Virus record (IMG/VR): IMGVR_UViG_2778261565_000018
Location: 1 to 36,928 of that record
DNA length: 36,928 nt
Reading direction: 5' to 3' (one strand)
Origin: a virus
Lineage: Duplodnaviria > Heunggongvirae > Uroviricota > Caudoviricetes
The notes below the pieces were generated by a model, which saw only the letters and a list, made by a program, of their open reading frames with translations, did no database searches and was not told the origin of the DNA. This document shows, piece after piece, positions 1 through 34,442 of this stretch (within the stretch, counting starts at the first letter, position 1; every line of letters starts with the position of its first letter). The position numbers and the translations under genes were made by a program.

Positions 1-1284
1 TTACTTCTTCGCCTCTGCAACCACTTTGCTACCCACGCCGCGGTTATTGTATTCCCACATGCGGTTGTAGTTAGTGTCATTCAGATTGCGTTGTATTTCG
101 TCGCTATCGTCAACACTGCCGGTGTTACCTGCGAATGGACGATTGGAAATCACCGCATCGGCCCACGGTTTCGCCGTGTTAAAACCTTCGTTGATGGCGC
201 TATCACGGATCACCACCTGACCGTTGGTATTGGCATCAACATCCAGCGAGCGGCCCAGTTGCGCCACGCCATCACCGGAAGCATTGAAACGGCTGTTTAC
301 GGCGAGGAAACCGTAGTAAATGTTGGACAGCGTAGCCGGTGCAAACACATACGCTTCTTGCTGGGTACGGGAGTTCACCACGCGGAATTCGGTGTTATCG
401 AACACCACTGCGCCGCGACCAGAAACGATATCCACATCCCCTTCAATATAGCTGTTGGTCACCAGCGTACGCGGCTGACGATTCGTTTCCAGACGGTTCT
501 GCACACCGCTATTGGTGACAAAGAAGGTGTTCTGACGACCGAGAATGTTAACGTTGTTAATCTGTACCTGGTCACCATCAGTACGCAGTGCCACCGCCGG
601 ATGGTTACCCGCATCTACGCTATCACCCAGCGTGTTTTCGATGGTCAGGTTTTGCAGTTGCAGGCCATTGTTTTGTGACCAGAAGACCGCAGAGCAGAGA
701 ACACCGATACTGTCGCTGCGTTTGCTCTGGCAGCTATCGTACATATACCACGCTGGTTTACCTGGCATATATTTGCCGCGCGGGTTGACGTCGTGACGCC
801 AGTCGGCAGGGCTCATGCCCCCATCAAGGGAAAGCCCAATCTTCACATCAATCGGTTTTTCACCTGTACCGTACAGAGTAATTCCACCCGGAGCGGCAGG
901 GACATATACCGTTCCATGATACTCACCAGGCATCACGGCAATATACTGGCGCTTGTTGGTACGCTTGATAATTGCCGCATCTACCGCCGCCTGAATCGTG
1001 GTATGCGTTACACCTTGAGTACCCGCCGGGCCGACAACAAAGTCAGGTTGCGCAGGCAAGGTAATTGGGGAAGGATTCCACGCTGCCGCACCTGGTGTCA
1101 GGGATGCAAAATAGTGTTGAGCATCGAAATTCTGCGCTTCTTTTGCCGACAGAATCGGGCGTGAAGAGGTACCAGGCGCGGTTTGATCAGAAGGACGTTG
1201 ATCGGGCGGTGTTGAGCTACAGGCGGTCAGCGTCACGCCAAAAGCCAATGCCAGCGCCAGACGGGAAACTGAAAATGTGTTCAC
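1..1284 (-). CDS. ybhC: Host YbhC, pectinesterase-family acyl-CoA thioesterase lipoprotein (complete, 427 aa)
   Basis: Full ORF in track; N-terminal signal peptide with lipobox LTAC; recognised as the E. coli gene flanking attB-lambda. Confidence 0.8.
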   Translation of the reverse strand: MNTFSVSRLALALAFGVTLTACSSTPPDQRPSDQTAPGTSSRPILSAKEAQNFDAQHYFASLTPGAAAWNPSPITLPAQPDFVVGPAGTQGVTHTTIQAAVDAAIIKRTNKRQYIAVMPGEYHGTVYVPAAPGGITLYGTGEKPIDVKIGLSLDGGMSPADWRHDVNPRGKYMPGKPAWYMYDSCQSKRSDSIGVLCSAVFWSQNNGLQLQNLTIENTLGDSVDAGNHPAVALRTDGDQVQINNVNILGRQNTFFVTNSGVQNRLETNRQPRTLVTNSYIEGDVDIVSGRGAVVFDNTEFRVVNSRTQQEAYVFAPATLSNIYYGFLAVNSRFNASGDGVAQLGRSLDVDANTNGQVVIRDSAINEGFNTAKPWADAVISNRPFAGNTGSVDDSDEIQRNLNDTNYNRMWEYNNRGVGSKVVAEAKK

Positions 1285-6951: not shown

Positions 6952-7084
6952 TTTTTGGGACTCCTGGCTGATTAAGTATGTCGATAAGGCGTTTCCATCC
7001 GTCACGTAATTTACGGGTGATTCGTTCAAGTAAAGATTCGGAAGGGCAGCCAGCAACAGGCCACCCTGCAATGGCATATTGCAT
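6920..7084 (-). CDS. cIII: CIII (FtsH inhibitor), 54 aa
   Basis: Hand-translated [54 protein letters not shown]; overlaps kil 5' end by 32 nt. Confidence 0.85.
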   Translation of the reverse strand: MQYAIAGWPVAGCPSESLLERITRKLRDGWKRLIDILNQPGVPKNGSNTYGYPD

Positions 7085-7156
7085 GGTGTGCTCCTTATTT
7101 ATACATAACGAAAAACGCCTCGAGTGAAGCGTTATTGGTATGCGGTAACGCAGCGC

Positions 7157-9163: not shown

Positions 9164-9916
9164 TTATGCTGCAAGTCTCTTAATCCAAGTCTCTCTTTTG
9201 GAGAATGGTAGAACTTGGCTTGATTCATGGAAGAGTAAGGAGAGTTGTTGCATTTGATCACCAATTGCTTCGCTGTCTATAACAACAAATCTGTTGTTAT
9301 ACTCCTCACTTGAAGCTTTAAGATCAATTAGTTTCCCAAGCAATGAGTAAGCACTATTCCAGCTTCCTCCGTGTTTCACGCTTGATGTAAAAACGTATTT
9401 AGGTATGTCGGTTTTTATTGTTACAGGGACGGTAATTTGATGTCCACTCAAGCCATATACGTTTTCACGAAGAGAAAGTGCGTCTCTAAGCTCTGTGTGA
9501 TATAGATAATCAATAACCATACTTTCAAACTTTTCAGCTTGAACTGGCTGATACCAGTCTAACGACAAAGTTGATGCGAGTATACCAGCTCTAATTATGT
9601 TCGATGTAATCGCACCGACATCCTTTTCTGTTGCCCAAGCAATGATTTCTCCTCGAGCATTGAGTTCTGCGCCTTCTTTAAGCAGTAATTGTCGTATCTC
9701 ATCAAGTCGTTTTTTGGTAAGCGAGATCCCTCTTGCCTCCATATTCATTAAGGCATCGCATCTGTCACTAACTAAATACCTACCATTGACTTCACGGATA
9801 AAGGCACCGACATGCTCTCCATCATCACAGTAAGTGAATGGACTGATAATTCTCAAGGTCTTGCCTATTGGATGGCATTCGAAACCTAGTTGTGAGATCA
9901 CTGTTGAGCACATCAT
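9164..9916 (-). CDS. Hypothetical protein B (250 aa), distal gene of rex-slot cassette
   Basis: ORF track; ATGATG start overlaps upstream ORF stop (ATGA); no family recognised; AT-rich. Confidence 0.6.
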   Translation of the reverse strand: MMCSTVISQLGFECHPIGKTLRIISPFTYCDDGEHVGAFIREVNGRYLVSDRCDALMNMEARGISLTKKRLDEIRQLLLKEGAELNARGEIIAWATEKDVGAITSNIIRAGILASTLSLDWYQPVQAEKFESMVIDYLYHTELRDALSLRENVYGLSGHQITVPVTIKTDIPKYVFTSSVKHGGSWNSAYSLLGKLIDLKASSEEYNNRFVVIDSEAIGDQMQQLSLLFHESSQVLPFSKRETWIKRLAA

Positions 9917-10470
9917 ATTCCAAACCCCATTTGCCCCGACTCATCTTCAAGCGGTAAAGGTATTCTCCCAGAGTAAGTTATGTTCAGATGTTTACAGAAG
10001 TAATTCCAATACCCTACCAGGTCATCTGGGTTTATGTCATCTTCGATTGGAAACGCTATTCTATCACTATAGTATCCAGCTTCTTCATAGTATACATGGT
10101 AGTGAGCACCGTAAATGATATCTTGGTACTTCGGATGATCGACCTTGTAACTATTCGTGTGTTTGTCAAAGTGATAGGTATCTACCGCGAAAACCCTCTT
10201 GTTATGATAGAAAGCAATAATATTTATTTTAGGGTAAGAAATCGGGTCATCAGGTTCTGAATCCTGATCTGGTTTCCATTTCAGTTCAAACTTTAGCCCT
10301 TGTATAGGTATACAATCCTCATCCAAGGGGATGATATGAGCTTGTAGCCACATATCAGAGCGACTTGGTTTCTGTTTCCATTTAACGCCAGAAAAGTTAA
10401 CTATTTTTTTACAATAAAGTACTTTATCAACTTCTACTTGGCTTGGCTGATAATCATCTATTTTTGCCAA
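9913..10470 (-). CDS. Hypothetical protein A (up to 185 aa), proximal gene of rex-slot cassette
   Basis: ORF track; co-directional with cI, 39 nt downstream; only a TTG start at 10470 or an internal ATG near 10353; no family recognised. Confidence 0.5.
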   Translation of the reverse strand: MAKIDDYQPSQVEVDKVLYCKKIVNFSGVKWKQKPSRSDMWLQAHIIPLDEDCIPIQGLKFELKWKPDQDSEPDDPISYPKINIIAFYHNKRVFAVDTYHFDKHTNSYKVDHPKYQDIIYGAHYHVYYEEAGYYSDRIAFPIEDDINPDDLVGYWNYFCKHLNITYSGRIPLPLEDESGQMGFGI

Positions 10471-10509: not shown

Positions 10510-11169
10510 TCACCCAAACGTCTCTTCAGGCCATTGGCTGGCGATAACTTTCCCCACAACGGAACAACTCTCATTGCATGGGATCATTGGGTATTGTGGG
10601 TTTAGTGGCTGTAGAAACACCTGACCGCTATCCCTGATCAGTTTCTTGAAGGTAAATTCATCACCACCAAGTCTGGCTATGCAGAAATCGCCGGGCTCAA
10701 CAGCTTGCTCAGGGTCAACCAGAATTAACATCCCGTCAGGAAAGCTGGGTTTGGAACCTGTTGGTGCGGTCATTGAGTTACCTTCAACCTCAAGCCAGAA
10801 TGCAGAGTCACTGGCTTTTTTGGTTGTGCTTACCAATCTCTCCGCATCGCCTTTGGTAAAGGTTCTGAGTTCTGGAGAGAACATCCCAGCCTGAACATGA
10901 GAAAAAACAGGGTACTCATATTGTTTTTTAACTGGGGCCGATGAGTATTCGCCAACAGGTGAAAATGTCCCGTCGTGGTTGAATGATATGTTATCAATAC
11001 CAAGGTATTTAAACACCACACCAATATCACTAAGAGATGGATGACGAGATCCGCGCAACCAGTGTCCAATCCCACCCTGCGTCATACCTAGCTCTTCGGC
11101 TAACTTCTCTTGAGTTATGCCGAGCTCTTTCATTCTGGATCTAGCCAGTTCATACCATTTCATTTTCAT
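10510..11169 (-). CDS. cI: CI-type repressor: XRE-family HTH N-domain plus lambda-cI-identical C-terminal S24 domain
   Basis: C-terminal about 135 aa ([21 protein letters not shown]...QWPEETFG) match lambda cI; N-terminal HTH differs; start taken at MKMKWYEL, alternatives upstream. Confidence 0.9.
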
Positions 11170-11278
11170 GTCCTTATTATTACGCTTTGTACTGGAACCA
11201 TCCATGCACAATGTGTATTTTTACTTGTATTCGTAAAGTACATATTGTATTTTTATTCGTGTTTACTATGGAGGGCAT
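11170..11278 (+). promoter_or_regulatory. OR operator region with divergent pR/pRM
   Basis: Between divergent cI and cro; TTGTAT-17 bp-TATTTT candidate pR; motifs GTAAAGTACATAT and ACGCTTTGTA shared with OL. Confidence 0.5.
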
Positions 11279-11597: not shown

Positions 11598-11635
11598 CCT
11601 TTCAACTAACTATTCACTATTGGAAATCTTAAGAA

Positions 11636-11932
11636 ATGGAAAGAACAAGTTACAGCAAACTATCACAGCGTGACGTTGATCGCGCAGAAACAGATTTACT
11701 TATCAATCTGTCAGCTATTACCCAGCGCGGTCTGGCAAAGATGATTGGCTGTCATGAATCGAAGATAAGCAGAACGGACTGGAGATTTATTGCTTCGGTC
11801 TTGTGTGCTTTCGGAATGGCATCAGACATAAGTCCGATTAGCAGGGCTTTTAAGTATGCGCTTGATGGATTCACCAATAAAAAACGCCCGGCGGCAACCG
11901 AGCGTTCTGAACAAATCCAGATGGAATTCTGA
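11636..11932 (+). CDS. cII: CII transcriptional activator (hybrid: lambda-identical C terminus)
   Basis: C-terminal NKKRPAATERSEQIQMEF matches lambda CII; N-terminal part differs. Confidence 0.85.
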   Translation: MERTSYSKLSQRDVDRAETDLLINLSAITQRGLAKMIGCHESKISRTDWRFIASVLCAFGMASDISPISRAFKYALDGFTNKKRPAATERSEQIQMEF

Positions 11933-11964
11933 GGTCATTACTGGATCAATCCACAGGAGTCATT

Positions 11965-12864
11965 ATGACAAATACAGCAAAAATACTCAACTTCTGCAGA
12001 GGTAACTTTGCCAAACAGGAGCGTAATGTGGCAGATCTCGATGATGGTTACGCCAGACTATCAAATATGCTGCTTGAGGCTTATTCGGGCGCAGATCTGA
12101 CCAAGCGACAGTTTAAAGTGCTGCTTGCCATTCTGCGTAAAACCTATGGGTGGAATAAACCAATGGACAGAATCACCGATTCTCAACTTAGCGAGATTAC
12201 AAAGTTACCTGTCAAACGGTGCAATGAAGCCAAGTTAGAACTCGTCAGAATGAATATTATCAAGCAGCAAGGCGGCATGTTTGGACCAAATAAAAACATC
12301 TCAGAATGGTGTATCCCTCAAAACGAGGGACAATCCCCTAAAACGAGGGATAAAACATCCCTCAAATTGGGGGATTGCTATCCCTCAAAACAGGGGGACA
12401 CAAAAGACACTATTACAAAAGAAAAAAGAAAAGATTATTCGTCAGAGAATTCTGGCGAATCCTCTGACCAGCCAGAAAACGATCTTTCTGTGGTTAAACC
12501 GGATGCTGCAATTCAGAGCGGCAGCAAGTGGGGGACAGCAGAAGACCTGACCGCCGCAGAGTGGATGTTTGACATGGTGAAGACTATCGCACCATCAGCC
12601 AGAAAACCGAATTTTGCTGGGTGGGCTAACGATATCCGCCTGATGCGTGAACGTGACGGACGTAACCACCGCGACATGTGCGTGCTGTTCCGCTGGGCAT
12701 GCCAGGACAACTTCTGGTCCGGTAACGTGCTGAGCCCGGCCAAACTCCGCGATAAGTGGACCCAACTCGAAATCAACCGTAACAAGCAACAGGCTGGCGT
12801 GACAGCCGGAAAACCAAAACTCGACCTGACAAACACTGACTGGATTTACGGGGTGGATCTATGA
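11965..12864 (+). CDS. O: Replication initiator O, 299 aa
   Basis: Protein recognised as lambda O; contains ori iterons. Confidence 0.95.
   Translation: MTNTAKILNFCRGNFAKQERNVADLDDGYARLSNMLLEAYSGADLTKRQFKVLLAILRKTYGWNKPMDRITDSQLSEITKLPVKRCNEAKLELVRMNIIKQQGGMFGPNKNISEWCIPQNEGQSPKTRDKTSLKLGDCYPSKQGDTKDTITKEKRKDYSSENSGESSDQPENDLSVVKPDAAIQSGSKWGTAEDLTAAEWMFDMVKTIAPSARKPNFAGWANDIRLMRERDGRNHRDMCVLFRWACQDNFWSGNVLSPAKLRDKWTQLEINRNKQQAGVTAGKPKLDLTNTDWIYGVDL
12312..12440 (+). repeat. ori-lambda: four about 19-bp iterons (ATCCCTCAAAACGAGGG-like) plus AT-rich region
   Basis: Four tandem iteron copies at about 12312-12399 followed by A-rich tract, inside O. Confidence 0.9.
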
Positions 12865-13562
12865 AAAACATCGCCGCACAGATGGTTAACTTTGACCGTG
12901 AGCAGATGCGTCGGATCGCCAACAACATGCCGGAACAGTACGACGAAAAGCCACAGGTACAGCAGGTAGCGCAGATCATCAACGGTGTGTTCAGCCAGTT
13001 ACTGGCAACTTTCCCGGCGAGTCTGGCTAACCGTGACCAGAACGAACTGAACGAAATCCGTCGCCAGTGGGTTCTGGCTTTTCGGGAAAACGGGATCACC
13101 ACGATGGAACAGGTTAACGCAGGAATGCGCGTAGCCCGTCGGCAGAATCGACCATTTCTGCCATCACCCGGGCAGTTTGTTGCATGGTGCCGGGAAGAAG
13201 CATCCGTTATCGCCGGACTGCCAAACGTCAGCGAGCTGGTTGATATGGTTTACGAGTATTGCCGGAAGCGAGGCCTGTATCCGGATGCGGAGTCTTATCC
13301 GTGGAAATCAAACGCGCACTACTGGCTGGTTACCAACCTGTATCAGAACATGCGGGCCAATGCGCTTACTGATGCGGAATTACGCCGTAAGGCCGCAGAT
13401 GAGCTTGTCCATATGACTGCGAGAATTAACCGTGGTGAGGCGATCCCTGAACCAGTAAAACAACTTCCTGTCATGGGCGGTAGACCTCTAAATCGTGCAC
13501 AGGCTCTGGCGAAGATCGCAGAAATCAAAGCTAAGTTCGGACTAAAAGGAGCAAGTGTATGA
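12861..13562 (+). CDS. P: Replication protein P (DnaB loader), 233 aa
   Basis: Protein recognised as lambda P. Confidence 0.95.
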   Translation: MKNIAAQMVNFDREQMRRIANNMPEQYDEKPQVQQVAQIINGVFSQLLATFPASLANRDQNELNEIRRQWVLAFRENGITTMEQVNAGMRVARRQNRPFLPSPGQFVAWCREEASVIAGLPNVSELVDMVYEYCRKRGLYPDAESYPWKSNAHYWLVTNLYQNMRANALTDAELRRKAADELVHMTARINRGEAIPEPVKQLPVMGGRPLNRAQALAKIAEIKAKFGLKGASV

Positions 13563-13849
13563 CGGGCAAAGAGGCAATTATTCATTACCTGGGGACGCAT
13601 AATAGCTTCTGTGCGCCGGACGTTGCCGCGCTAACAGGCGCAACAGTAACCAGCATAAATCAGGCCGCGGCTAAAATGGCACGGGCAGGTCTTCTGGTTA
13701 TCGAAGGTAAGGTCTGGCGAACGGTGTATTACCGGTTTGCTACTAGGGAAGAACGGGAAGGAAAGATGAGCACGAACCTGATTTTTAAGGAGTGTCGCCA
13801 GAGTGCCGCGATGAAACGGGTATTGGCGGTATATGGAGTTAAAAGATGA
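13559..13849 (+). CDS. ren: Ren, 96 aa
   Basis: Protein recognised as lambda Ren. Confidence 0.9.
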   Translation: MTGKEAIIHYLGTHNSFCAPDVAALTGATVTSINQAAAKMARAGLLVIEGKVWRTVYYRFATREEREGKMSTNLIFKECRQSAAMKRVLAVYGVKR

Positions 13850-13874
13850 CCATCTACATTACTGAGCTAATAAC

Positions 13875-13906
13875 AGGCCTGCTGGTAATCGCAGGCCTTT
13901 TTATTT
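13875..13906 (+). terminator. Intrinsic terminator (tR2-like) before nin region
   Basis: AGGCCTGC-8 nt loop-GCAGGCCT followed by TTTTTATTT. Confidence 0.75.
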
Positions 13907-13922
13907 GGGGGAGAGGGAAGTC

Positions 13923-14363
13923 ATGAAAAAACTAACCTTTGAAATTCGATCTCCAGCACATCAGCAAAACGCTATTCACGCAGTACAGCAAATCCTTCCA
14001 GACCCAACCAAACCAATCGTAGTAACCATTCAGGAACGCAACCGCAGCTTAGACCAAAACAGGAAGCTATGGGCCTGCTTAGGTGACGTCTCTCGTCAGG
14101 TTGAATGGCATGGTCGCTGGCTGGATGCAGAAAGCTGGAAGTGTGTGTTTACCGCAGCATTAAAGCAGCAGGATGTTGTTCCTAACCTTGCCGGGAATGG
14201 CTTTGTGGTAATAGGCCAGTCAACCAGCAGGATGCGTGTAGGCGAATTTGCGGAGCTATTAGAGCTTATACAGGCATTCGGTACAGAGCGTGGCGTTAAG
14301 TGGTCAGACGAAGCGAGACTGGCTCTGGAGTGGAAAGCGAGATGGGGAGATCGGGCTGCATGA
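13923..14363 (+). CDS. ninB: NinB (Orf family recombination protein), 146 aa
   Basis: MKKLTFEIRSPAHQQNAIHAVQQ matches lambda NinB. Confidence 0.9.
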   Translation: MKKLTFEIRSPAHQQNAIHAVQQILPDPTKPIVVTIQERNRSLDQNRKLWACLGDVSRQVEWHGRWLDAESWKCVFTAALKQQDVVPNLAGNGFVVIGQSTSRMRVGEFAELLELIQAFGTERGVKWSDEARLALEWKARWGDRAA

Positions 14364-14887
14364 CTATCAAATCAAATACGCCAGCACACGACAAGGACTG
14401 CTGGCAAACGCCGCTTTGGCTTTTTGATGCACTGGATATTGAGTTTGGATTCTGGCTGGATTCGGCAGCGAGCGACAAAAATGCTCTGTGTGCTCACTGG
14501 CTAACTGAGGCCGACGACGCGCTCAATTCTGAGTGGGTAAGCCACGGTGCAATCTGGAATAACCCACCGTACAGCAATATCAGGCCGTGGGTGGAAAAAG
14601 CCGCTGAGCAGTGCATACAACAGCGACAGACGGTAGTTATGCTTGTGCCAGAGGATATGTCAGTCGGATGGTTCAGCAAGGCTCTGGAGAGTATTGACGA
14701 AGTTCGCATCATCACTGATGGACGGATTAATTTTATCGAACCATCGACAGGGCTGGAGAAGAAGGGAAACAGCAAAGGTTCCATGCTGCTGATTTGGCGA
14801 CCGTTCATCAATCCTCGACGGATGTTTACTACCGTATCCAAAGCGGCATTGATGGCGATCGGGCAGGGCGTCAGGAGGGCAGCATGA
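14360..14887 (+). CDS. Phage-type DNA N6-adenine methyltransferase (Dam-like, orphan), 175 aa
   Basis: NPPY catalytic motif ([10 protein letters not shown]); occupies the lambda ninC/ninD slot; ATGA coupling with ninB. Confidence 0.8.
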
Positions 14888-15066
14888 GACGACAGCGACG
14901 AAGTATCACCGACATCATCTGCGAAAACTGCAAATACCTTCCAACGAAGCGCTCCAGAAATAAACGCAAGCCAATCCCAAAAGAATCTGACGTAAAAACC
15001 TTCAACTACACGGCTCACCTGTGGGATATCCGGTGGCTTAGAGAACGTGCGAGGAAAACAAGGTGA
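14884..15066 (+). CDS. ninE: NinE, 60 aa
   Basis: [30 protein letters not shown] matches lambda NinE. Confidence 0.85.
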
Positions 15067-15311
15067 TTGACCAAAATCGAAGTTACGAACAAGGAAGTGT
15101 CGAGCGAGCTTTAACGTGCGCTAACTGCGGTCAGAAGCTGCATGTGCTGGAAGTTCACGTGTGTGAGCACTGCTGCGCAGAACTGATGAGCGATCCGAAT
15201 AGCTCGATGCACGAGGAAGAAGACGATGTAAAAACGATGAATGTCGGGAATGGTTTCACCCTGCATTCGCCAATCAGTGGTGGTGCTCTCCAGAGTGTGG
15301 AACCAAGATAG
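15063..15311 (+). CDS. ninF: NinF variant (82 aa) with altered C terminus reading out of frame into the ninG region
   Basis: GTG start; first about 55 aa match lambda NinF, then continues across sequence that encodes Rap in another frame. Confidence 0.6.
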
Positions 15312-15814
15312 CACTCGAACGACGAAGCAAAGAACGCGAAAAAGCGGAAAAGGCAGCAGAGAAGAAACGACGACGAGAGGAGCAGAAACAGAAAGATAAA
15401 CTTAAGATTCGAAAACTCGCCTTAAAGCCCCGCAGTTACTGGATTAAACAAGCCCAACAAGCCGTAAACGCCTTCATCAGAGAAAGAGACCGCGACTTAC
15501 CATGTATCTCGTGCGGAACGCTCACGTCTGCTCAGTGGGATGCCGGGCATTACCGGACAACTGCTGCGGCGCCTCAACTCCGATTTGATGAACGCAATAT
15601 TCACAAGCAATGCGTGGTGTGCAACCAGCACAAAAGCGGAAATCTCGTTCCGTATCGCGTCGAACTGATTAACCGCATCGGGCAGGAAGCAGTAGACGAA
15701 ATCGAATCAAACCATAACTGCCATCGCTGGACTGTCGAAGAGTGCAGGGCCATCAAGGCGGAGTATCAACAGAAACTTAAAAAACTGCGAAACAGCAGAA
15801 GTGAGGCTGCATGA
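15203..15814 (+). pseudogene. ninG: ninG/rap homologous frame lacking a start codon (probable 5'-truncated pseudogene or unconventional expression)
   Basis: Frame encodes [28 protein letters not shown]...NSRSEAA (Rap-like) but opens directly after a TAG with no ATG/GTG/TTG until codon for V at 15614. Confidence 0.6.
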
Positions 15815-16482
15815 ATATCTACGAAAGAATTGATGGCAGCAAATACCGAAATATTTGGGTAGTTGGCGATCTGCACGGATGCTACACGAACCTGATGAAC
15901 AAACTGGATACGATTGGATTCGACAACAAAAAAGACCTGCTTATCTCGGTGGGCGATTTGGTTGATCGTGGTGCAGAGAACGTTGAATGCCTGGAATTAA
16001 TCACATTCCCCTGGTTCAGAGCTGTACGTGGAAACCATGAGCAAATGATGATTGATGGCTTATCAGAGCGTGGAAACGTTAATCACTGGCTGCTTAATGG
16101 CGGTGGCTGGTTCTTTAATCTCGATTACGACAAAGAAATTCTGGCTAAAGCTCTTGCCCATAAAGCAGAAGAACTTCCGTTAATCATCGAACTGGTGAGC
16201 AAAGGTAAAAAATATGTCATCTGCCACGCCGATTATCCTTGTGACGAATACGAATTTGGAAAGCCAGTTGATCATCAGCAGGTAATCTGGAACCGCGAAC
16301 GAATCAGCAACTCACAAGACGGGATCGTTAAAGAAATTAAAGGCGCGGACACGTTTATCTTTGGTCATACGCCAGCAGTGAAGCCACTCAAATTTGCCAA
16401 CCAGATGTATATCGATACTGGGGCAGTGTTCTGCGGAAATCTCACATTGATTCAGGTACAGGGAGAAGGCGCGTGGGCATAA
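15811..16482 (+). CDS. ninI: NinI Ser/Thr protein phosphatase (lambda PPase), 223 aa
   Basis: GDLHG and GNHE metallophosphatase motifs; recognised as lambda phosphatase. Confidence 0.9.
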
Positions 16483-16961
16483 GAGAACTAAACCTCACCA
16501 AAGAACAGCATGAGTGGCTGAATGGCTGGCTTGAACTGTGGGGCGCATGGGTTTATTCAGGTCGTCTGGAAAAGCGCATGAGCAGCGTAATAGCGACGTT
16601 CATGGAGAGCGTAGAGCCGGGAAGAGTTATGACAAGGCCAATGTGTAATGATGATGATGGAATGTTGATTTCTCAGGTCGTCGATTCCGTCATGTACATT
16701 GACAAGAAAGCCTTTGGAATCCTCCTCAGCTACTACGCTCATGGCTCTTCCAAGCACGCCATTGCATCTTACTATCATCGCGTCGCAAGACCTCGCAAGA
16801 TGTTATGCCGTGGCGGCGGGCGCATTCAAAAACCATCGCTCGCAACCTGTCGACGGGAAGTTGACGAAATCCTTAATGCCTCGTTGTTTATGATTTACCC
16901 GGTTCTGGATAGTGCGTTTAAAAATCGGAAACGTGTAGAGAAAATTAAACATGTAGCATAG
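16473..16961 (+). CDS. Q: Late-gene antiterminator Q (non-lambda type), about 162 aa
   Basis: Position between nin genes and lysis cassette; not lambda Q; GTG start overlapping ninI stop, start uncertain. Confidence 0.6.
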
Positions 16962-16966
16962 AACGT

Positions 16967-17048
16967 GTTGACATCATTGAGCAAATGAGCAACACTATTG
17001 GCATAAGCTGCCGTTAGTGACTCTTAAGTTGCAACGGTGGCTTTTTTT
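16967..17048 (+). promoter_or_regulatory. Putative late promoter PR' (TTGACA -35 at 16967-16972) and short-leader terminator (17007-17048)
   Basis: Consensus -35 just after Q; hairpin GCUGCCGUU-17 nt loop-AACGGUGGC followed by T7; -10 not cleanly defined. Confidence 0.45.
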
Positions 17049-17052
17049 ATTT

Positions 17053-17127
17053 GGGTCAGTCGTATAAAGGTCATTACGGAAGGCTGTTAACCTTCTTATC
17101 GTGGTTCGAGTCCACGCTGTCCCGCCA
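17053..17127 (+). tRNA. tRNA-like gene, anticodon GUU (Asn) by manual fold; one U-U mismatch in acceptor stem
   Basis: Hand-folded cloverleaf: 5-bp anticodon stem GAAGG/CCTTC, loop CTGTTAA, T-arm CGTGG-TTCGAGT-CCACG, 3' GCCA. Confidence 0.5.
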
Positions 17128-17132
17128 AATAT

Positions 17133-17208
17133 GCTGGTTTAGCTCCAATGGTAGAGCAGTCGCCTTGTAAGCGAATGGGTAGCGGTTCAAGTCCGTTAAC
17201 CAGCACCA
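17133..17208 (+). tRNA. tRNA, anticodon UGU (Thr) by manual fold, encoded CCA
   Basis: Perfect 7-bp acceptor stem GCTGGTT/AACCAGC, D-arm GCTC/GAGC, anticodon loop CTTGTAA, T-loop TTCAAGT, ACCA end. Confidence 0.65.
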
Positions 17209-17450
17209 TAACTGAGCCGTAGCCACTGGCTATCCTGAATTCATCAGTGATAGTTACGCTGCGGCATTCTACGCATGACCTTCGTGAAAGCGGGTGGCAA
17301 GAGGCTGCGCTAACAACCTCCTGCCGTTTTGCCCGTGCATATCGGTCACGAACAAATCTGATTACTAAACACAGTAGCCTGGATTTGTTCTATCAGTAAT
17401 CGACATTATTCCTAATTAAATAGAGCAAATCCCCTTATTGTGGGTAAGAC

Positions 17451-17774
17451 ATGAAGATGCCAGAAAAACATGACCTGTTAGCCGCCATTCTCGCGGCAAA
17501 GGAACAAGGCATCGGGGCAATCCTTGCGTTTGCAATGGCGTACCTTCGCGGCAGATATAATGGCGGTGCGTTTACAAAAACAGTAATCGACGCAACGATG
17601 TGCGCCATTATCGCCTGGTTCATTCGTGACCTTCTCGACTTCGCCGGACTAAGTAGCAATCTCGCTTATATAACGAGCGTGTTCATCGGCTACATCGGTA
17701 CTGACTCGATTGGTTCGCTTATCAAACGCTTCGCTGCTAAAAAAGCCGGAGTAGAAGATGGTGGAAATCAATAA
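17451..17774 (+). CDS. S: Holin/antiholin S (S107/S105 dual start), 107 aa
   Basis: [22 protein letters not shown] matches lambda S with Met1-Lys2-Met3 dual-start motif. Confidence 0.95.
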
Positions 17775-30943: not shown

Positions 30944-31277
30944 GTCTGAAGTTTTTAACTGGATCCCCCGCGAGGGGATGGAGACGACACGAAAGCCATC
31001 TGTTATTACGGTAAAGTTCGGTGACGGATATGAACAGCGACGGGCTGGTGGTCTGAATGCAGATCTGAAAACGTTTAAACCGGTATTTCGTGTCACGGAT
31101 GAATATTCCCGTGCCGCGCTGGACAGTTTTTTATCCCGTCATGCCGGGGTTCGTGCTTTTTTGTGGCGTCCGCCAAAACACAACAGGACTGTCCGGGTTG
31201 TCTGCAGGGAGTGGAGCATTTCGGATAATGCCATGTATACCGATTTTAACTGTACCTTTGAAGAGGTCACTCACTGA
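30936..31277 (+). CDS. M: Minor tail protein M (start ambiguous: GTG 30936 preferred, ATG 30975 alternative)
   Basis: FGDGYEQR and FLWRPP motifs as in lambda M; GGAGG 8 nt before GTG. Confidence 0.8.
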   Translation: MPESEVFNWIPREGMETTRKPSVITVKFGDGYEQRRAGGLNADLKTFKPVFRVTDEYSRAALDSFLSRHAGVRAFLWRPPKHNRTVRVVCREWSISDNAMYTDFNCTFEEVTH

Positions 31278-31975
31278 TGCAGGATATACAGCAGGAAACA
31301 CTCAATGAGTGCACTAAAACGGAGCAATCCGCGCTGGTCGTGCTCTGGGAAATTGATCTGACAGAGGTCGGCGGAGATCGTTATTTCTTCTGTAATGAGC
31401 AGAACGAAAAAGGTGAACCAGTCACCTGGCAGGGGCGGCAGTATCAGGCCTATCCCATTCAGGGAAGTGGATTTGAGATGAACGGCAAAGGAGCCAGTGC
31501 AAGGCCAACGCTGAAAGTCTCTAATCTGCACGGCATGGTCACCGGGATGGCGGAAGACCTGCAGAGTCTGGTCGGCGGAACGGTGGTCAGGCGTAAGGTT
31601 TACGCCCGTTTTCTGGATGTGGTGAACTTCGTCAACGGAAACAGCGAAGCCGATCCAGAGCAGGAGGTGATCAGCCGCTGGCGCATCGAGCAGTGCAGCG
31701 AACTGAGCGCGGTGAGTGCCTCTTTTGTACTGTCCACGCCGACTGAAACGGATGGCGCTGTTTTTCCGGGACGTATCATGCTGGCCAACACCTGCACCTG
31801 GACCTATCGCGGCGATGAGTGCGGTTATAGCGGTCCGGCGGTCGCGGATGAATATGACCAGCCGACGTCCGATATCACGAAGGATAAATGCAGCAAATGC
31901 CTGAGCGGCTGTAAGTTTCGCAATAACGTCGGCAACTTTGGCGGCTTCCTTTCCATTAACAAACTTTCGCAGTAA
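31277..31975 (+). CDS. L: Minor tail protein L, 232 aa
   Basis: Recognised as lambda L; C-terminal Cys cluster. Confidence 0.9.
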   Translation: MQDIQQETLNECTKTEQSALVVLWEIDLTEVGGDRYFFCNEQNEKGEPVTWQGRQYQAYPIQGSGFEMNGKGASARPTLKVSNLHGMVTGMAEDLQSLVGGTVVRRKVYARFLDVVNFVNGNSEADPEQEVISRWRIEQCSELSAVSASFVLSTPTETDGAVFPGRIMLANTCTWTYRGDECGYSGPAVADEYDQPTSDITKDKCSKCLSGCKFRNNVGNFGGFLSINKLSQ

Positions 31976-32657: not shown

Positions 32658-32726
32658 AAATAGCGAAGCCCGACAGTGCGCGAACACAAATCGGGCTTCT
32701 ATGTCAGTAACTTCCAAGGAACTAAC
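32655..32726 (-). ncRNA. Predicted Sar-like antisense RNA covering the ant RBS
   Basis: Minus-strand promoter TTGATA-17 bp-TATACT (plus-strand 32733-32761) with -10 overlapping the ant start; minus-strand terminator is the perfect 9-bp hairpin at 32665-32699 plus T-rich tail. Confidence 0.5.
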
Positions 32727-32729
32727 GAA

Positions 32730-33650
32730 ATGAGTATAGCAACAGCGGTATCTACTATCAACGTGCCATTCCACGGCGCAGAGCTTTATGTCGTCAATCA
32801 CAACGGCGAACCGTACACCCCAATGAAACCTATCGTTGAGGGAATGGGTATGGATTGGGCTTCACAGTTTACAAAGTTAAAACAAAGATTTGCTAAAGGT
32901 ATTGTGGAAATCGCAATACCTTCAGTTGGCGGTATGCAGACCATGATTTGCCTTGCTTTGCGTAAACTGAATGGTTGGCTCCAAACCATCAGTCCTAACA
33001 AAGTCCGCCCTGAAATCCGCGAGAAGGTAATCCAGTATCAGGAAGAGTGTGACGATGTGCTCTACGAGTACTGGACTAAAGGCCATGTGATTAACCCGCG
33101 CAAAGCTAAAAAGGCGTTGCCGGGTAAAATCACCACTGAACAGCAGGAAGCCATTAAACAACTCGTCATGAGTCGCGGTCAGTCTCTGCCAAAAGAAAAA
33201 CAGGCTAAGGCGATGATCACCATGTGGTCGTCACTGAAATCCCATTTTGGATGTTCGTACAAAGAAATTAGTGAGGAGCAGTTTACCGAAGCACTGTCAC
33301 TTGCTGCTCGCGTTCCGCTTGAAGGTGAGTTCATTGGCAAACAAGAGAAGAAAACCAACGAGCTTTCCGCAAAAGAAGCAAACAGCCTTGTATGGCTGTG
33401 GGATTATGCTAACCGCTCACAGGCATTATTCCGCGAATTGTATCCAGCGCTAAAGCAAATTCAATCGAACTATTCCGGCAGATGTTACGACTACGGCCAT
33501 GAGTTCTCGTATGTTATTGGAATGGCGAGAGACGTTTTAATCAATCACACACGAGATGTTGATATTAATGAGCCAGATGGACCAACGAATCTTTCCGCAT
33601 GGGTAAGGCTTAAGAGCAAAGAGTTGCCGCCTTCACTGCATCACTACTAA
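32730..33650 (+). CDS. ant: Antirepressor Ant (P22 Ant-like N-terminal domain), 306 aa
   Basis: N-terminal region (LYVVNHNGEPYTPMKPIVEGMGMDW) resembles P22-type antirepressor; AAGGA RBS; downstream of arc-like gene. Confidence 0.7.
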   Translation: MSIATAVSTINVPFHGAELYVVNHNGEPYTPMKPIVEGMGMDWASQFTKLKQRFAKGIVEIAIPSVGGMQTMICLALRKLNGWLQTISPNKVRPEIREKVIQYQEECDDVLYEYWTKGHVINPRKAKKALPGKITTEQQEAIKQLVMSRGQSLPKEKQAKAMITMWSSLKSHFGCSYKEISEEQFTEALSLAARVPLEGEFIGKQEKKTNELSAKEANSLVWLWDYANRSQALFRELYPALKQIQSNYSGRCYDYGHEFSYVIGMARDVLINHTRDVDINEPDGPTNLSAWVRLKSKELPPSLHHY

Positions 33651-33668
33651 CAGATTACCAACGAAATG

Positions 33669-33692
33669 ACCCAGCCTCGGCTGGGTTTTTTA
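33669..33692 (+). terminator. Intrinsic terminator after ant
   Basis: ACCCAGC-ctcg-GCTGGGT followed by T5. Confidence 0.6.
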
Positions 33693-33704
33693 TCAGGAGT
33701 TCTC

Positions 33705-34442
33705 ATGCTCTATAGCAATATATTGGCACACGCCCGGCGGTGTGCGCCTGCGGAGTCGTGCGGCTTCGTGGTGAGAACGCCGGAGGGGGAGCGGTATATC
33801 CCTTGTGTGAATATCTCTGCAGAGCCGGAGGCGTATTTTCGTATTGCACCGGAAGACTGGCTGCGGGCAGAGATGCAGGGGGAGATTGTGGCGCTGGTCC
33901 ACAGCCACCCCGGTGGTCTGCCCTGGCTGAGTGAGGCTGACAGGCGGCTGCAGGTGCAGAGCGATTTGCCTTGGTGGCTGGTCTGCCGGGGTGAGATTCA
34001 TAAATTCCGCTGTGTGCCGCATCTTACCGGGCGGCGCTTTGAGCACGGGGTGACGGACTGTTACACGCTGTTCCGGGATGCTTATCATCTGGCGGGGATT
34101 GAGATGCCGGATTTTCATCGCGGGGATGACTGGTGGCGTCACGGTCAGAATCTCTATCTGGATAATCTGGAGGCCACAGGGCTGTATCAGGTGCCGTTGT
34201 CAGCGGCGCAGCCGGGCGATGTGCTGCTGTGCTGTTTTGGTTCATCGGTGCCGAATCATGCCGCCATTTACTGTGGTGATGGCGAGCTGCTGCACCATAT
34301 TCCTGAACAACTGAGCAAACGAGAGAGGTATACCGACAAATGGCAGCGACGCACACACTCCCTCTGGCGTCACCGGGCATGGCACGCATCTGCCTTTACG
34401 GGGATTTGCAACGATTTGGCCGCCGCATCGACCTTCGTGTGA
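33705..34442 (+). CDS. K: Tail assembly protein K (MPN/JAB plus NlpC/P60-like)
   Basis: Recognised lambda K motifs (HARRCAP..ESCGF, HSHPGG, DCYTLFRDAY); start after AGGAG; the track start at 33666 lies inside the terminator. Confidence 0.85.
   Translation: MLYSNILAHARRCAPAESCGFVVRTPEGERYIPCVNISAEPEAYFRIAPEDWLRAEMQGEIVALVHSHPGGLPWLSEADRRLQVQSDLPWWLVCRGEIHKFRCVPHLTGRRFEHGVTDCYTLFRDAYHLAGIEMPDFHRGDDWWRHGQNLYLDNLEATGLYQVPLSAAQPGDVLLCCFGSSVPNHAAIYCGDGELLHHIPEQLSKRERYTDKWQRRTHSLWRHRAWHASAFTGICNDLAAASTFV

Follow-up and report, generated by a model that had tools for sequence, protein, structure and literature searches.

Rap, the NinG protein of phage lambda, is a Holliday-junction/D-loop endonuclease (PMC2082072). 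Deletion of rap leaves the plaque size of lambda unchanged, while RecA-dependent recombination (exchange with prophages) falls by about 300-500-fold and Red-dependent recombination by 3-6-fold (PMC3945230). The laboratory rap-deletion and nin5-deletion mutants of lambda resemble the locus described here, as the same gene is affected at the same place, between ninF and the phosphatase/Q genes, and its loss is tolerated. They differ from it in that ours appears to be a natural null allele, which spans 23 bp, gives NinF a tail of 27 codons and circulates in wild prophages. The E. coli host has RuvABC, which, together with the dispensability of Rap for lytic growth, would allow a rap-null allele to be tolerated.

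The window, i.e., the whole stretch of 36,928 nucleotides that we analysed, consists of E. coli chromosome followed by a lambda-like prophage. The chromosomal gene ybhC (1-1284, minus strand) matches complete E. coli genomes at 99.9%, the integrase of the prophage occupies 1419-2489, and phage lambda matches about half of the first 25 kb of the window at ~97%. The early-right operon has the order cII, O, P, ren, ninB/orf, dam, ninE, ninF, the rap position and a Ser/Thr phosphatase gene, after which come a 162-aa Q, tRNA-Asn, tRNA-Thr, holin and endolysin; HK97-type head genes and lambda-type tail genes stand 3' of the lysis genes. The same gene order, with ninG intact, is present in the prophage of E. 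coli MEI1A-0323 (L005). The genes exo, bet, gam and orf/ninB are all kept in our prophage.

We consider that the locus is best explained, with a probability of about 90%, by a natural 23-bp repeat-mediated deletion that would have left a rap-null pseudogene and a chimeric NinF in an otherwise intact prophage. Such an event would be an ordinary gene-inactivating mutation in a dispensable accessory gene, involving no new mechanism, and a natural knockout of this kind agrees with laboratory work in which growth did not require Rap.

Loss of 23 bp between direct repeats

The original prediction held that the 3' end of ninF and the MAKPA start of ninG had been deleted between short repeats of 7 bp. 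Alignment to the ninF-ninG region of lambda showed that lambda does not share the junction and has an extra 23 bp there, as do near-identical E. coli prophages, and the Gly56 codon and TAA of ninF and the MAKPA codons of ninG are indeed gone from the window; the length of the repeat had to be revised, to 10 bp (GAAGACGATG). The gap, located at the ninF/ninG overlap, is the sole indel both against lambda, where DNA identity over the region is ~94.5% with the gap set aside, and against relatives that are identical over the stretch from ninF to 5' ninG. Several E. coli prophages equal the window over 358 bp save for the gap (381 aligned columns, 94.0% = 358/381). Among the matches listed, all phage and complete-genome sequences carry the 23 bp, which read GCTAAACCAGCGCGAAGACGATG.

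The ancestral-type sequence contains two perfect 10-bp direct repeats, 13 bp apart, as in relative L002, where GAAGACGATG-N13-GAAGACGATG occupies 18157-18189 and the junction reads ...GAGGAA GAAGACGATG GCTAAACCAGCGC GAAGACGATG TAAAAACG... The size of the gap is the sum of one repeat (10) and the spacer (13), and one repeat is left: in the alignments the sole remaining copy, at 15219-15228 on the plus strand, is the deletion junction. Lambda itself has an imperfect first copy of the repeat (GAAGATGATG), and the closest relatives have a perfect one; of 80 IMG/VR relatives, 76 had their junctions read, and 45 of these carry the perfect repeat. The gap is missing from all 80, whose ninG begins in the wild-type manner at its 5' end; in some of them the gene that precedes ninG is a different one, and in one the ninG ATG is replaced by ATA. 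In this last relative (among L011-L090), whose junction reads ...CCATAATAGCTAAACC..., GAAGAAGATG takes the place of the second repeat, and the relative may represent a different loss of the rap start codon.

The ancestor would thus have had the normal lambda layout, in which ninF ended with ...GAAGACGATGGCTAA and overlapped the ninG/rap start (ATGGCTAAACCAGCGCGAAGACGATGTAAAAAC...). As judged from the footprint, the two copies of GAAGACGATG presumably mediated a slipped-strand or microhomology deletion, by which one copy and the spacer were removed. Deletions between short direct repeats by replication slippage are known from the classic lacI-type deletions, in which likewise one repeat and the spacer are lost and one repeat is kept; nothing about the present deletion is unusual in this respect.

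The scar of a mobile HNH or moron insertion was also considered, given that relatives have insertions of this kind at the ninF/ninG boundary, and was ruled out, as the footprint is exactly the repeat and spacer of an uninterrupted wild-type junction. The lambdoid module insertions rearrange the same boundary but keep an intact ninG with its own ATG, whereas the start is destroyed in the window. Two relatives illustrate these insertions. In L004 (764-1033), the ATG of GAAGACGATG, at the position of the ninG start elsewhere, opens a 270-nt gene of unknown function that reaches the displaced ninG start with TAATGG at its end. In L003 (742-987), ninF is broken up by a partial HNH endonuclease gene, so that a frameshifted ninF and a second copy of ninF are present.

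Reading frames across the junction and possible routes to Rap

Because 23 cannot be divided by 3, the frames shift: ninF, without its final codon and stop, now reads through rap in the wrong frame for 27 extra codons, while rap lost codons 1-5 and its ribosome-binding site and ATG now open an ATG TAA in the third frame. The chimeric ORF, ninF' (15063-15311, plus strand), starts with GTG, comprises 82 codons against 56 in normal ninF and ends at TAG 15309-15311. As had been proposed from the letters alone, the ninF ORF runs on for about 27 codons: ninF' consists of NinF residues 1-55 (...MHEEEDD) and 27 codons of the 5' end of rap read out of frame. With the Gly56 codon and TAA deleted and the 27 foreign codons gained, ninF' has neither the native length (56 aa) nor the native stop that overlaps the ninG start. 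It is still matched by the Pfam NinF profile (PF05810; 46.4 bits, cut-off 27.5) over residues 18-42. The exact 82-aa protein is present in a collection of 15 billion proteins as STK70892.1 of GCA_900449475.1, "NinF protein [Escherichia coli]", and for the sake of annotation hygiene it should be noted that this entry and identical calls are a chimera of NinF and out-of-frame rap. Upstream, ninE (14884-15066, plus strand; 60 codons) is intact, and its stop overlaps the ninF start; the same 183-nt gene is annotated NinE in L005 and L002, and PF05322 was found on the product called in carrier loci.

The Rap-homologous frame, which is -1 relative to ninF, is open for 203 codons on the plus strand, from 15203 to TGA 15812-15814 (15203-15814). 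It is matched by the Pfam NinG profile (PF05766) with 295.7 bits (cut-off 25.4, E 2e-88) over profile positions 6-192 of 193, the homology beginning at ~15218. Only the M-A-K-P-A codons are missing, so 199 of the 204 codons are in place; RRRCKNDEC... and everything downstream is kept, and the translation retains both the N-terminal Cys cluster (C-X4-C...C-X3-C) and DAGHY...CVVCNQHK. Compared with the intact ninG of L005, the frame has one substitution (Arg to Cys, at 15719). A search of the PDB by sequence returned no relative of Rap.

The start signals of this frame were found as predicted, base for base: it opens after a TAG (15200-15202, plus strand), and its first ATG, GTG or TTG is the GTG at 15614-15616 (plus strand), which has no Shine-Dalgarno (SD) sequence (anti-SD duplex +1.1 kcal/mol) and would give a 66-aa C-terminal fragment. 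The claim that ninG has no start holds for the Rap frame, but it overlooked an SD-preceded ATG that survives in the third frame. The former ninG SD, GAGGA (15213-15217, plus strand; anti-SD duplex -5.9 kcal/mol), which also precedes the annotated ninG ATG in L002, is retained together with the ninG ATG (15226-15228), and TAA (15229-15231) follows directly, forming a start-stop at 15226-15231 on the plus strand. What the Rap frame lacks is, at the N-terminus, an initiation codon that is in frame and served by a ribosome-binding site, and on this ground we regard it as a putative pseudogene of the NinG/Rap family, without functional membership. In every carrier locus, gene callers placed no gene between ninF' and the phosphatase gene, and ~600 bp of near-intact rap is left unannotated in carrier genomes.

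If no ribosome is delivered into the Rap frame, no Rap Holliday-junction/D-loop endonuclease would be made; we infer that the protein is absent and that the allele is neutral. Three options had been put forward originally, namely a pseudogene, a sequencing error and an unconventional mode of expression. The pseudogene is the one that our results support. Unconventional expression found no support, since the overlap has no slippery heptamer, no in-frame start and no downstream fold above chance, and the sequencing error is excluded by the carriers described below.

The most specific route to Rap would be a NinF-Rap fusion made by -1 slippage of Lys-tRNA on A_AAA_A (15230-15234), with GAGGA as the stimulating element as in dnaX. 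The Rap frame does lie at -1 relative to ninF, the AAA at 15231-15233 can re-pair with the AAA at 15230-15232, 12 nt separate the ninG SD from the A5 run that follows it in the ninF frame, and the allele persists in apparently intact prophages. SD-like elements at a spacing of the 12-nt type favour -1 shifts in dnaX, so that the -1 relation, the A-run and the SD-like element are all points of likeness to dnaX-type frameshifting. Unlike dnaX, however, the window site has no heptamer, no above-chance downstream structure and no conservation, and it is not a member of this class. No X_XXY_YYZ heptamer occurs in the ninF frame across the overlap (15201-15309), and within 15203-15311 only a single-tRNA slip is available. 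The RNA downstream of the A-run folds no better than dinucleotide shuffles (z = 0.14 for 65 nt and 0.36 for 105 nt), and the same is true of local folds. The arrangement is not conserved among relatives, given the wild-type ninG 5' end in 80/80 IMG/VR relatives, and would be an accident of a recent deletion. Moreover, the product would have Val for Cys9 (TGT 15227-15229), the first of the four N-terminal cysteines, and the Arg-to-Cys change is already present in the Rap frame. A trace of NinF-Rap fusion is conceivable, yet we judge slippage to be a very improbable source of Rap.

Termination-reinitiation would instead yield a truncated Rap, with ribosomes passing from the ninF' TAG (15309-15311) to the in-frame ATA at 15308 or to GTG 15614. 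The ATA overlaps the ninF' stop (A-TAG) and is preceded by a purine-rich, SD-like stretch (duplex -6.5 kcal/mol), and nin-region genes are normally translationally coupled through ATGA overlaps. However, ATA is a very poor initiator in E. coli, and the product would be without residues 1-36, which include all four N-terminal cysteines (C9, C14, C28 and C32). Reinitiation at GTG 15614, a codon without SD (+1.1 kcal/mol), would give a 66-aa product that starts inside the conserved DAGHY...CNQHK region and is without the upstream His. This route is just as improbable as slippage. The other alternative starts in the Rap frame are ATA, ATT and ATC only, and all but ATA 15308 are without SD. As for read-through of TAG 15200, the frame that this TAG closes has no ORF of 30 codons or more. 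Even with frameshifting, alternative initiation and TAG read-through added together, it is very unlikely that Rap is still made. That the deletion should by chance have produced a functional recoding or coupling site (-1 slippage or ATA reinitiation), giving some NinF-Rap fusion or truncated Rap, is a long shot; if true, it would explain the persistence of the allele in several hetero-immune phages.

The downstream Ser/Thr phosphatase gene (NinI-like; 15811-16482, plus strand; Metallophos profile match) has an ATG that overlaps the rap stop (ATGA) and its own SD (duplex -6.2 kcal/mol), because of which polarity is probably limited and the phosphatase is probably still expressed. As is established for lambda, N-antiterminated transcription should also resist Rho.

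Carriers of the junction and spread of the allele

A sequencing or assembly artefact, with the 23 bp present in the real DNA and ninF and ninG both normal, was considered as a rival, and scans for the junction seemed at first sight to point to a singleton. The exact junction GAAGAAGAYGATGTAAAAACGATGA had 0 matches each in GTDB representative genomes, IMG/VR and JGI metagenomes; a megablast of the 40-nt junction had no match in 5,426 complete E. coli genomes; and the junction was not found in the INPHARED phage set, where all best matches carry the extra 23 bp. As a control for the low-complexity filter, a wild-type 40-mer of the same composition was used, which matched 342 genomes, so the negative result in the complete genomes is real.

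The view of a singleton or artefact was overturned by exact-protein look-ups. At least 24 contigs encode the identical 82-aa product, for which the index lists 31 blocks. The ten carrier places among the matches listed come from ten different ENA, NCBI and Logan samples, which were obtained with different technologies and include a PacBio genome: a 5.16-Mb chromosome contig (GCA_900449475.1), a draft genome (GCA_002459685.1), an ENA gut metagenome scaffold, which equals the window over 6.2 kb, and seven Logan assemblies of separate SRA runs. The carriers comprise several haplotypes with three immunity types, and a 23-bp loss bounded by 10-bp repeats is atypical of platform error. Because the same junction and its 82-aa product recur in many independent datasets, an artefact, and with it the sequencing error considered originally, is excluded for practical purposes.

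The carriers contain at least three different sets of N, repressor and cro genes, i.e., immunity regions. The first set, that of the window, encodes a 217/231-aa repressor and a 71-aa Cro; the second a 234-aa repressor, a 77-aa Cro and a 127-aa N; and the third a lambda-type 237-aa cI and a PF09048 Cro. From 13093 to 18270 (5.2 kb; nin-Q-lysis), the carriers differ at 3 sites only. In 11600-13092, comparison with L093, L094, L096 and L097 gave 33 variable sites in cII-O-P, in mosaic patterns typical of recombination. The differences in the region shared among carriers thus all cluster in cII-O-P, next to a nearly invariant segment (13093-18270), a distribution that places a recombination boundary close to the 5' part of P.

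One of the 3 variable sites lies in the Rap frame. The codon at 15719-15721 (plus strand) is TGC (Cys) in the window and most carriers and CGC (Arg) in the carriers L093, L094 and L007 as well as in all intact relatives examined, including 74/74 IMG/VR relatives where the site was found. This non-synonymous change arose after the deletion, within the deletion lineage. As a single event, it fits relaxed constraint on the Rap frame. The frame is still fully open, and the 3 variable sites among carriers in 5.2 kb are too few to gauge selection.

The absence of the junction from the 5,426 complete E. coli genomes, GTDB representatives, IMG/VR and JGI metagenomes points to a rare and recent allele. 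Most simply, the junction would have a single origin, after which the right-arm module joined different left arms. The allele would thereby have travelled in an almost clonal nin-Q-lysis-head segment and reached at least three lambdoid prophages that are hetero-immune. It might be asked whether the loss of rap was adaptive rather than neutral, for example through less junction cleavage or less recombination with resident prophages. Such an advantage would account for the association of the allele with several immunity types, as it is found with at least three immunity regions and in at least ten samples. Against this, carriers vary at just 3 sites over 5.2 kb of their almost clonal right arm, which makes the spread recent and in keeping with hitch-hiking; none of the 5,426 complete genomes has the allele, while the intact-junction 40-mer matches 342 of them; and no recurrent independent origin was seen, though 45 of the 76 junctions of IMG/VR relatives carry the perfect repeat. 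We consider an adaptive loss unlikely and favour a neutral allele.

The junction is a unique 23-bp marker of a nearly clonal nin-Q-lysis-head module that is joined to at least three immunity regions. The spread of this module would offer a small and clean example of recent modular exchange, for which the junction can serve as a lineage marker. As wild-type relatives differ from the window by 3 substitutions in ~2 kb, they provide a ready-made isogenic contrast for the part of Rap in prophage mosaicism.

Neighbouring genes of the prophage

Several features elsewhere in the window are worth mentioning. A tRNA-Asn(GTT) and a tRNA-Thr(TGT) (17053-17127 and 17133-17208, plus strand) lie between Q (16473-16961) and the gene for the holin (17451-17774) and presumably belong to the leader of the late transcript; the pair is also present in relatives L002 and L005. 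An HNH endonuclease gene (18741-19091, plus strand), with PF01844/PF14279 on the product called in carrier loci, stands directly 5' of the small and large terminase genes (19240-19722 and 19722-21479), which is the usual HK97-type packaging layout.

At the rexAB position, beside the repressor gene (10510-11211, minus strand), two genes of 250 aa and 185 aa (9164-9916 and 9913-10470, both minus strand) match the PADLOC candidate defence system PDC-M24 (component B, E 6e-10; component A, E 5e-4). Other deletion carriers have different gene pairs at this position. A P22 antirepressor-like gene (32676-33650, plus strand; P22_AR_N, E 1e-44; P22_AR_C, E 6.5e-30) is found among the tail genes, flanked by tail protein L (31277-31975) and a K-like JAB/NlpC protein (33666-34442). 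The lambda cIII thermoregulator RNA element (Rfam RF01804, 88.5 bits) is located at 7039-7097 on the minus strand.
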